From Dictyostelium discoideum (Eukaryota), in the NCBI GenBank assembly GCA_000004695.1, contig CM000150.2:4576001-4640000 (forward strand): 64,000 nt of DNA, given 5' to 3'. Below are positions 40,748-43,679 of the stretch, one piece after another. Made by a program: the position numbers and the translations under genes. Positions within the stretch are counted from its first letter, which is position 1. Every line of letters begins with the position of its first letter. A model generated the notes under the pieces. The model searched no databases. It was given only the letters and a program-made list of their open reading frames with translations, and was not told where the DNA came from.

Positions 40748-42103
40748 ATGTTTTTAGTTGACTATTATAACTATCTTTCTGAAAGATATGATTATTATTT
40801 AACATTAAGAGGTAATATATATATATATATATAGAGGCGTCAGCTTCAAATATTATTATTATTATTAATACTAATACTTTTTATAAAAAAAAAAAATATA
40901 TATGTATCATAGATGAAAGAGTATTAAATTGGCCATTAATTAATAGACCACATGAAATGATATATTTAGTTATTGGATATTTTGCAATCATATTTTTTGG
41001 TCAAAAGATAATGAAGAAACAAAAACCATTCGAATTGAGGTATCCATTAATTATTCATAATGTGGTTTGTACATTATTAAGTTTATATATGACTATTGAA
41101 ATTACATATCAAGCATATTCAAATAACTACTCTTTAATGTGTAATTCTGTTGATTATAGTGAAAAAGGTCTTGGTGTATGTATTTTTTAATTTTTTTTTT
41201 TTTTCAAAAAATTTATAACCCCCCTAACTAATTAATTAAATATAGATGGCAAAAGTATTATGGTTATTCTATTTCTCAAAGTTTATTGAATTTATGGATA
41301 CATTTTTTATGGTTTTAAGAAAAAAAGATAGTCAAATTACTGTAAGTTTTTTTTTTTTTTTTTTTTTTTTTTCTTCTTCTCTCCAATTGGACACAATATC
41401 ATGGAAGTAAACCCATCCATGTTTTGGATTTTAGGTGTATATATTTATACTAACCTAACCTATAAATATCACAGGTTTTACATGTATATCATCATTCTAC
41501 AATGCCAATGTTATGGATTATGGGAATCTGGTATGCGGCCGGAGGTGATAGCTATATTTCAGCATTAATCAATTCATTCATTCATACAGTTATGTACAGT
41601 TATTATGCATTATCATTATTTGGATTTAATATTTGGTGGAAGAAATATTTAACTCAATTGCAATTAATTCAATTTGCTGTAAATATACAAAATAATAATA
41701 ATAATAATAATTTATTATCGTTTTGGTATAAATGAATATATGTACTAATTATTTTATAATTTTATTATTATTTATTATTATTTATTATTATTATTATTAT
41801 TATTATTATTATTATTATTATTATTATTATTATTATTATTATTATTATTATTATTATTATTATTATTATTATTATTATTTATTATTATTATTTTATAACA
41901 AATACAAATAAAATTACAAAACTGGAAATTTTCATTAGATGAACCTAATTTTTTCAATGTGGTCTTTATATAATGATTGCAAATTCATTAAATGGATGCA
42001 TTGGGGTATGATTATATATATGATTAGTTTCTTATTCTTATTTGGTGCATTCTATAAAAGAAGTTATTCCCAACCAAAGAAATCAACAAAGAAAATTCAA
42101 TAA
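40748..42103 (+). CDS. ELO-family (GNS1/SUR4) fatty acid elongase, 5 exons: join(40748..40811,40913..41175,41246..41341,41475..41678,41939..42103), about 263 aa
   Basis: It has the histidine box [14 protein letters not shown], the motifs HTVMYSYY and [14 protein letters not shown], and a C-terminal KKxx-like end (TKKIQ). Donors are GTAATA, GTATGT, GTAAGT and GTAAAT; acceptors are TAG/CAG. Phases are consistent. The introns carry (AT)n and (ATT)n microsatellites. Confidence 0.75.
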
Positions 42104-42382
42104 AAAAAAATAAAATAAAAAATAAATAAAATAAAAATATTTAAGGAAGAATAAAAAGATATCTTTGATTTGTAAATATTTGTTTAATAAACAATAGTTT
42201 TTAAATCTTTATTTTGTTTTTTTAAATTTTAAATTTTAAATTTTAAATTTTAATTAGAACTATATGCAAATAACATTAAAATAAATATGGTGATACCGGA
42301 AAAAAAAATTTTTTTTAGATAATTTTATATTTAGATTTTTATTGTTAAAAATAATTATTTAAATAATTTTGTTATTACATTT

Positions 42383-43679
42383 TTATTCAATTTTTTTTGG
42401 TTTATATTTATTATGAGTATTGGATTTATTATTAGTTGGGTAACTATTTTTATAAAAAGCACCAAATAATACCAAAAATCCCAACATATAAACTATCATA
42501 CACCAATGCATGAACTTAATAAAGTTACAATCATAATAGATACTATATGCTGATGCACTTAAATTTACCTAACAATTTTTTAAAAAAAGAAATAAAAAAA
42601 ATAATAAGTTAGATCATATATGCATAAACCAATGTATTATTATTATTATTGTTTTTTTTTTGTATATTTACAGCAAATTGGATTAATTGAATTTGAGTTA
42701 AATATTTCTTCCACCAAACATTAATACCAAATAATGCTAAAGTGTAATAACTGTACATAATGGTATGAATAATAGAATTAACCATTGCTGATAAAAAGCT
42801 ATCACCACCACCTACATATGATAGATCTAACCACCATAGGATTGGCATTGTAGAATGATGCCACACATGTCTATGAAAATGCAAAGTTTGTTAGTTTATG
42901 AATAAAATAAAATAATAAATAATAAATAATAAATAATAAATAAAATACTTACAAAACTTTATTATTAAATTTAAAAAAAAAAAATTTATGATAATAAAAA
43001 AATTATTAATAATTTAAAATAAAAAAAAATAAAATTAAATTAAAAATTATTCTAAAGTACTTACATGTGATTTGATTATCTTTTTTTCTTAAAACCATAA
43101 AAAATGTATCCATAAATTCAATAAACTTTGAGAAATAGAATAACCATAATACTTTAGCCATCTATATTAAAAAAAATTTTAAATAATTAATTTATTTTGT
43201 TTGGTTTTTTTTTTTTTTTCAATTTTTTAAGGATTAATAAATGAAAATAAATAATAAAAAAACATTATACATACACCAATTCCTTTTTCAGTATAATCAA
43301 CTGGGTTACATATTGGGGAATAATCATTTGAAATTGCTTGATGTGCAATTTCAATTGTCATATATAAACTTAATAATGTGCAAACTGCATTATGAATAAT
43401 TAATGGATATTTCAATTCAAATGGTTTTTTATTTTTCATTATCTTTTGACCTAATTTGACAATTATTACATATCCAATAATTAAATAGATCATTTCATTT
43501 GGTCTACTTAATAATGGCCAATTTAAAACTCTTTCATCTAATTTAATTAATATAAAAAAATAAGTATCAATGGATTGGTCCCCAAAAAAAAAAAAAAAAA
43601 TAAAAAAATTAAACTGACCTCTTCTTGATAAATAATATTCATATCTTTGAGATAAATAATTAAAATAATTATCGATCAT
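42383..43679 (-). pseudogene. ELO-family fatty acid elongase, inverted paralog of the upstream gene. Same 5-exon architecture, complement(join(42383..42568,42672..42870,43066..43161,43275..43537,43619..43679)), but the exon 3/exon 4 junction is out of frame
   Basis: All five exons are recognisable (MIDNYFNYLSQRYEYYLSRR; [22 protein letters not shown]...; [32 protein letters not shown]; HVWHHSTMPILWW...HTIMYSYY...[15 protein letters not shown]; ...FMHWCMIVYMLGFLVLFGAFYKNSY..KPKKIE). Relative to the paralog there is +1 nt before the exon-3 donor (ACAT|GTAAGT vs ACT|GTAAGT) and -5 nt at the exon-4 acceptor. With canonical sites the frame is therefore lost. This is either a young pseudogene, or the gene uses alternative or non-canonical splice sites. 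Confidence 0.45.

Follow-up and report, generated by a model that had tools for sequence, protein, structure and literature searches.

Does the second of two neighbouring ELO genes of Dictyostelium discoideum still encode an enzyme, or has a change of a few nucleotides at one of its introns made it a pseudogene? The question was raised by an earlier note on a stretch of 64,000 nucleotides of AT-rich Dictyostelium sequence (contig CM000150.2, positions 4,576,001 to 4,640,000; hereafter the window), which described an ELO fatty-acid elongase gene pair at positions 40748-43679 (all positions are those of the window). According to that note the second gene, copy 2, carries one extra nucleotide at the exon-3 donor and lacks five at the exon-4 acceptor, so that canonical splicing could not keep the frame, and copy 2 had to be either a very young pseudogene or a gene using shifted or non-canonical splice sites. 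The results described below suggest that copy 2 is probably an intact, selectively maintained ELO gene with a displaced intron 3 boundary (43061 joined to 42870, yielding a protein of 269 amino acids), and not a pseudogene.

The intron 3 junction of copy 2

Both genes matched the ELO profile PF01151 along its full length (copy 1, E = 2e-66; copy 2, E = 3.8e-65, 220 bits, profile positions 2-240 of 242). They are convergent and have a five-exon layout in common, and their stop codons are 279 bp apart (42104-42382), in keeping with the distance of about 280 bp given before. The main features of the pair are as follows.

40748..42103, plus strand: copy 1 ELO gene, exons 40748-40811, 40913-41175, 41246-41341, 41475-41678 and 41939-42103
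41481-41495, plus strand: His box of copy 1, HVYHH
42104..42382: AT-rich spacer of 279 bp between both stop codons
42383..43679, minus strand: copy 2 ELO gene, DDB_G0271066 (Q55BY4, XP_646697.1), proposed exons 43679-43619, 43537-43275, 43161-43061, 42870-42672 and 42568-42383
42869-42855, minus strand: His box of copy 2, HVWHH

The spliced translation of copy 1 was open (263 amino acids) and exactly matched the D. discoideum AX4 protein XP_002649204.1/EEU04154.1 (C7FZW5). Protein identity between the two copies, previously put at about 80%, was found to be 72% (184/255); the value of approximately 79% applies to nucleotide identity of the coding sequences (CDS). An inverted-repeat search returned arms corresponding to exon 2 (82%), exon 3 (96%) and exon 4 (83%). 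The two are already annotated genes and do not represent a new kind of biological system.

When counted from its GTAAGT donor, exon 3 of copy 2 has 97 nt as compared with 96 nt in copy 1, and exon 4 has 199 nt as compared with 204 nt, the difference of 5 nt being at its 5' end. In this respect the previous description was accurate, and direct joining of 43065 to 42870 does shift the frame. However, the minus strand at the junction reads ...CAA ATC ACA T|GTAA|GTACTT, with a second GT at positions +5/+6 of GTAAGT. The sites considered in the following are:

43059..43064, minus strand: donor 1, a perfect GTAAGT after ...ACAT; phase 1, used in the D. firmibasis and D. dimigraforme models
43055..43060, minus strand: donor 2, GTACTT, lying downstream of donor 1 by 4 nt; the 5' splice site (phase 2) that is proposed to be functional
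42890..42895, minus strand: ACTAAC, putative branch-point motif of intron 3, upstream of the acceptor by some 20 nt, a role suggested by its sequence
42871..42872, minus strand: AG acceptor of intron 3 (tttcatAG|ACATGTG), after which exon 4 begins at 42870; the sole AG between the branch-point motif and the His box
42812..42813, minus strand: AG inside exon 4 (tatgtAG|GTGGTGG), the acceptor of the public AX4 model

The ACTAAC motif conforms to wCTAAy, which is reported to be the commonest branch motif in D. discoideum (PMC2483917). If exon 3 is extended to 43061, so that the GT at 43060-43059 is paired with the AG at 42872-42871, 4 nt are gained, the frame is exactly restored, and an open CDS of 810 nt (269 amino acids) is obtained, in which the GTAA bases of donor 1 become coding in TGT AA|A (Cys-Lys). 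Canonical splicing can therefore keep the frame, contrary to what had been claimed: the site is indeed shifted, as one of the proposed alternatives had it, but it is an ordinary GT-AG site whose GT lies within GTAAGT.

All GT (7) and AG (14) sites around the junction were enumerated. Eleven combinations were in frame and free of stops, and only two of these retained HxxHH, a motif that enters the protein only with acceptor 42870. The other of the two loses most of exon 3, including the KxxExxDT box; thus 43061 to 42870 is the only canonical solution that leaves both exons whole. Three non-canonical solutions were also considered and rejected: TGA results when donor 1 is combined with the 2 nt that precede CAT, an intron in phase 0 would have the non-canonical ends TG...AT, and the sequence gives no support for an AT-AC intron. 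Donor 1 itself appears, from the comparison of related genes, to be the ancestral phase-1 donor.

Conservation, selection and competing readings of copy 2

The locus was compared in ten further genomes. The junction ACAT-GTA(A/T)-GTA(C/T)TT ... (C/T)ATAG|ACAT was common to D. discoideum ACTFIT, ACTFIR and ACTFIW, D. cf. discoideum ACTFIY, ACTFIZ, and D. citrinum. With donor 2, an intact open reading frame was obtained in 5/5 modelled genomes of this clade (the window, ACTFIW, ACTFIY, ACTFIZ and D. citrinum). Ratios of non-synonymous to synonymous substitution rates (dN/dS) were determined by the method of Nei and Gojobori (NG86) within the clade sharing the junction, and they cover only the time since the junction arose. 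The following values were obtained (Sd and Nd, synonymous and non-synonymous differences; omega, dN/dS):

Copy 2, whole CDS, all pairs: dN/dS 0.04-0.15
Copy 2, exons 4-5, all pairs: dN/dS 0.00-0.17
Copy 2, exons 4-5, AX4 vs D. citrinum: Sd 30.8, Nd 14.2, omega 0.068, P = 1e-13 against neutrality
Copy 2, exons 4-5, AX4 vs ACTFIW: 9 synonymous and 0 non-synonymous, P = 2e-7
Copy 1, same genomes: dN/dS 0.10-0.29

Copy 2 is at least as constrained as copy 1, and downstream of the supposed lesion dN/dS is far from the values near 1 that relaxed selection would leave. Identity in intron 3 was dropped as a neutral benchmark; this AT-rich, low-complexity sequence aligns spuriously. Between AX4 and D. 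citrinum, the 19 codons around the His box differed by 6.5 synonymous and 1.5 non-synonymous changes (P = 0.001). Since these codons evolve as coding sequence, the acceptor must lie upstream of them. Taking into account that the sequence downstream of 42870 has been translated in one frame throughout the divergence of the clade, a phase-2 donor is needed, and this is donor 2. The comparison of sequences thus makes donor 2 the site presumably used in vivo.

According to its supplement, a tandem mass tag (TMT) proteome of AX2 cells, for which a minimum of two unique peptides was required, has Q55BY4/DDB_G0271066 among the quantified proteins (PMC8204557). A full-text literature search for DDB_G0271066 returned no paper, and the homology search gave no match close to either copy from transcript-derived run assemblies. 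The public models of copy 2 disagree with each other:

269-aa (amino acid) model: D. discoideum isolates ACTFIW and ACTFIR, donor 2 (KAM9960160.1, KAM9961242.1)
253-aa model: ACTFIT
248-aa AX4 reference model, XP_646697.1/Q55BY4: donor 1 (43065) joined to 42811; no His box, HVWHHSTMPILWWLDLSYV deleted

The proposed copy 2 protein was 99% identical to KAM9960160.1 and KAM9961242.1, and the GenBank model of D. citrinum also uses donor 2, as do those of ACTFIW and ACTFIR. It equals the public AX4 model across all residues common to both; the exact 269-aa AX4 protein was absent from the searched protein collection.

If the 248-aa reference model were correct, copy 2 would encode a catalytically dead, ELO-like protein without HxxHH. 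This model is the one in RefSeq and UniProt, it is in frame and it uses the strong donor, but it requires that the AG at 42872-42871, which follows a good branch motif, be skipped in favour of an AG that has become GTG in D. citrinum and D. cf. discoideum ACTFIY, two genomes that otherwise share the junction. Moreover, the 19 codons that it skips are those found above to evolve as coding sequence, and the omission of a DNA-encoded His box from the Joint Genome Institute (JGI) models of both D. purpureum genes points to a recurrent artefact of gene prediction. We therefore regard the 248-aa protein as a very unlikely product of copy 2, and the AX4 reference model as probably mis-annotated. The +1/-5 difference is even less likely to be a sequencing or assembly error in the window, a possibility that the earlier note had left to be checked at 43065 and 42870: the identical sequence is present in the independent assembly ACTFIT, and five further genomes share the same architecture, so we consider this practically excluded.

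Several observations weigh against splicing at donor 2. The weak donor 2 faces a perfect GTAAGT at donor 1, from which competition is to be expected; donor 1 may be used part of the time, giving rise to a frameshifted transcript. Among 48 other donors of these ELO genes none had C at position +4, which is the base found in the GTACTT of the AX4 lineage. The GenBank annotation of ACTFIT, identical to AX4, did not pick donor 2. A Lys directly before HxxHH is unusual for an active enzyme: Leu occupied this position in 127/132 homologues with HxxHH, the sole exceptions being the copy-2 proteins of the D. discoideum/D. citrinum clade. The proteome match could come from N-terminal peptides of a frameshifted mRNA. 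A scan of metagenome contigs for the spliced exon 3-4 junction (0-4 nt gap) gave 0 matches, a result that carries no information for or against donor 2.

Some of these points lend weight to a narrowed form of the 'very young pseudogene', in which the gene works in wild isolates and the AX4/NC4 laboratory lineage (AX2 is also NC4-derived, like AX4) carries a very young, splicing-impaired allele. Only the window and the ACTFIT assembly, which is identical to it, have the donor-2 hexamer GTACTT, and GTATTT was present in every other isolate and in D. citrinum; on this distribution the T-to-C change at +4 is specific to the AX4 lineage. GTATTT is attested as a donor once among the 48 others, in intron 1 of D. 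firmibasis copy 2. The change at +4 would let the GTAAGT decoy win, and most of the mRNA would then be frameshifted, ending 14 codons past the junction, as computed for the product of 43065 joined to 42870. That the annotation of ACTFIT avoids donor 2 and those of ACTFIR and ACTFIW use it fits this scheme, as does the absence of +4 C from the other donors. Position +4, however, is generally a minor determinant of donor strength, and there is no second lesion anywhere in the AX4 reading frame. The 9 synonymous and 0 non-synonymous differences between AX4 and ACTFIW in exons 4-5 also argue against an impaired allele, albeit weakly, as a very recent mutation leaves no such signal. Moreover, the protein is listed for AX2 in the proteome supplement (PMC8204557). 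On balance an impaired allele seems improbable to us, and a pseudogene in the wider sense is not supported: the shared junction, the intact reading frames, the purifying selection and, less clearly, the proteome listing speak for an intact copy 2, probably spliced from 43061 to 42870.

The 269-aa model should replace the present AX4 model of DDB_G0271066, a correction that affects lipid-metabolism annotation and proteomics databases. Similar problems were seen in related models. The D. purpureum models DICPUDRAFT_33776 and DICPUDRAFT_27790 omit the His box; the DNA encodes FLHVFHH and PLHIYHH downstream of an intron that is normal and in phase 0. For ACTFIY there are two separate gene models for the one copy 2, and the model of copy 1 runs on into intron 4 and is thereby cut short. 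Predicted models of ELO genes are not reliable in the neighbourhood of the His box.

Origin of the gene pair and turnover of its introns

Orthologues of each copy were found in D. firmibasis, D. dimigraforme and D. purpureum, the latter having one copy-1-like and one copy-2-like gene. The duplication is old, because orthologues group by copy across species (p-distance approximately 0.21 between paralogues and 0.10-0.16 between orthologues). The convergent order is that of the D. discoideum/D. citrinum clade; D. firmibasis and D. dimigraforme have the two genes in tandem on the same strand. The flanking gene on the copy-1 side keeps its orientation in 6/6 loci and that on the copy-2 side in 5/6, the latter gene not being found in the D. 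firmibasis locus. By these arrangements, copy 1 alone is inverted between the two lineages, and the convergent layout reflects an inversion in one of them; the D. purpureum genes, not being syntenic, give no polarity to this change. The pair had been described as a tail-to-tail inverted duplication. The convergent order and the inverted-repeat arms bear this out in part, but the layout reflects the inversion of copy 1 and not necessarily the mode of duplication, and the paralogues are old.

Nucleotide identity between the paralogues was not uniform. Exon 3 with the KxxExxDT region (41236-41340 vs 43067-43171) was 96-100% identical in every species, whereas the other exons were approximately 82% identical, and in D. 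firmibasis there was an extra patch of 96-98% paralogue identity at codons 175-190. This mosaic suggests short gene-conversion tracts or unusually strong constraint at the nucleotide level.

The position of intron 3 differed between the members of the family. It is in phase 0 (ACN|GTAAGT...AG|NNN TTA CAY) in every copy-1 gene and in the two genes of D. purpureum. In copy 2 of D. firmibasis and D. dimigraforme the intron is in phase 1 (ACA T|GTA(A/G)GT...AG|TT TTR CAY), with a unique mapping to the annotated protein, and the usual Phe-Leu-His is encoded; exon 3 has 97 nt and the fused exon 4+5 has 371 nt. Exons 3 and 4 measure 96 and 204 nt in copy 1, as opposed to 101 and 199 nt in copy 2 of the D. 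discoideum/D. citrinum clade, and the length of the protein across the junction is unchanged among orthologues and paralogues. In this clade the donor-side sequence is retained and a new AG is present 4 nt nearer to the His box. Compensation is by 4 nt of former intron sequence: GTAA, giving Cys-Lys, for D. discoideum, and GTAT, giving Cys-Ile, for D. citrinum. In our reading, the TTTGCAT inside AX4 intron 3 is what remains of the former start of the exon. In the C. fasciculata homologue this site is without an intron.

These data point to a displacement in two compensated steps. In the ancestor of copy 2, intron 3 would have moved by 1 nt, from phase 0 (ACN|GTAAGT...AG|TTT TTA CAT) to phase 1. 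Later, in the ancestor of D. discoideum and D. citrinum, exon 4 would have been remodelled at its 5' end, with a new AG 4 nt nearer to the His box, and the frame would have been regained by a 4-nt shift of the donor to the GT at +5/+6 of GTAAGT (phase 2). Four former intron bases would thereby have turned into coding sequence, replacing the Phe-Leu before HxxHH by Cys-Lys in D. discoideum and by Cys-Ile in D. citrinum. The order of the mutational events is the one that the compared sequences suggest. In ACTFIZ, an extra upstream AG (ttgAG) puts donor 1 in frame too and leads to FFHRHVWHH, which is its GenBank model; the use of this AG is doubtful, because it is only about 6 nt from the ACTAAC branch motif.

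Intron 4 also differed between species. In the window its two versions are:

41679..41938, plus strand: intron 4 of copy 1, with (AAT)7 at 41691-41711 and approximately 50 (ATT) units at 41748-41896
42569..42671, minus strand: intron 4 of copy 2, with a short (AAT)5 at 42635-42650; homologous to intron 4 of copy 1

Both begin with gtaaatatacaaaa, and the inverted-repeat arm reaches 33 nt into the intron. Microsatellites had been reported in the equivalent intron of both copies; they are present in both, although the tracts are very unequal, that of copy 1 having about 50 units and that of copy 2 only about 5. Copy 2 intron 4 is flanked by the direct repeat GTAAAT...|GTAAAT. The intron is located after ...QFA. 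D. discoideum, D. cf. discoideum and D. citrinum have it in both paralogues; D. firmibasis, D. dimigraforme and D. purpureum have it in neither of their two genes, and the C. fasciculata homologue lacks it too. Its versions are homologous, as nearly all begin with gtaaatatacaaa and have the block ...gaatatatgtactaattatt in common. The distribution suggests either a gain that was spread by gene conversion or several parallel losses.

Both D. purpureum genes share another intron about 19 codons further 3'. The C. fasciculata homologue has introns 1 and 2 in common with the genes of the window. It lacks an intron at QIT|FLH; its phase-1 intron at ...AGG|D is located some 22 codons beyond that site on the 3' side. 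Among dictyostelids, the turnover of intron positions is fast in the 3' half of the genes of this family. A more far-reaching proposal, which we put forward tentatively and hold to be somewhat unlikely as a whole, is that the ELO pair forms a small hotspot in which intron evolution is recent and is seen at intermediate stages. In this proposal intron 3 would have slid twice (phase 0 to 1 to 2) by means of the inner GT of GTAAGT, rewriting two near-invariant residues, with ACTFIZ offering both in-frame pairings, and intron 4 would be a recent gain copied between the paralogues by gene conversion.

Outside the two genes, a long (AAT)n tract upstream of copy 2 (44310-44537) corresponds, as its reverse complement, to the (ATT)n tract within intron 4 of copy 1 (41748-41896). 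Many of the inverted-repeat pairs in the region are accounted for in this way, and the tract is probably no more than microsatellite sequence. Scans of the window for tRNA genes and Rfam families gave no matches.

Relation to known ELO enzymes and splice-site systems

The ELO family is characterized by the boxes KxxExxDT, HxxHH, HxxMYxYY and TxxQxxQ, and a C-terminal KKxx serves as a di-lysine signal for the endoplasmic reticulum (ER). All of these are present in the proposed copy 2 protein (terminus ...KKIE), including the HxxHH (HVWHH) and MYSYY motifs that had been recognized before, and copy 1 has equivalent boxes (terminus ...KKIQ). The closest solved structure for copy 2 is that of human ELOVL7 (PDB 6Y7F; E = 6e-52, residues 12-253), to whose HVFHH the HVWHH of copy 2 aligns. 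By these resemblances copy 2 is a putative ELO-family condensing enzyme, the 3-ketoacyl-CoA synthase of fatty-acid elongation in the ER, with predicted elongase activity. It differs from the rest of the family in having Cys-Lys in place of the near-universal Phe-Leu before HxxHH. The near-invariant Leu at this site is not a formal defining feature of the family, yet its replacement is a notable departure.

The interest of the locus is modest and lies in a tidy case of intron sliding and in the correction of an annotation. As a comparative example it is clean: the boundary of an intron can be displaced by a few bases and the gene still survive, the GT inside GTAAGT being a ready-made backup donor. 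As in other instances of intron sliding, a homologous intron is found at different phases, here 0, 1 or 2, with compensating changes on both sides, as read at this locus from comparative genomics. Tandem 5' splice sites 4 nt apart (GTNNGT) are known from work on alternative splicing in animals. The junction of copy 2 resembles them in that it also has two GTs 4 nt apart, between which a shift of 4 nt changes the frame. It differs from them in that the downstream, weaker GT appears to be the productive one, and in that the shift is a fixed one, for which a change of 4 nt at the acceptor compensates.

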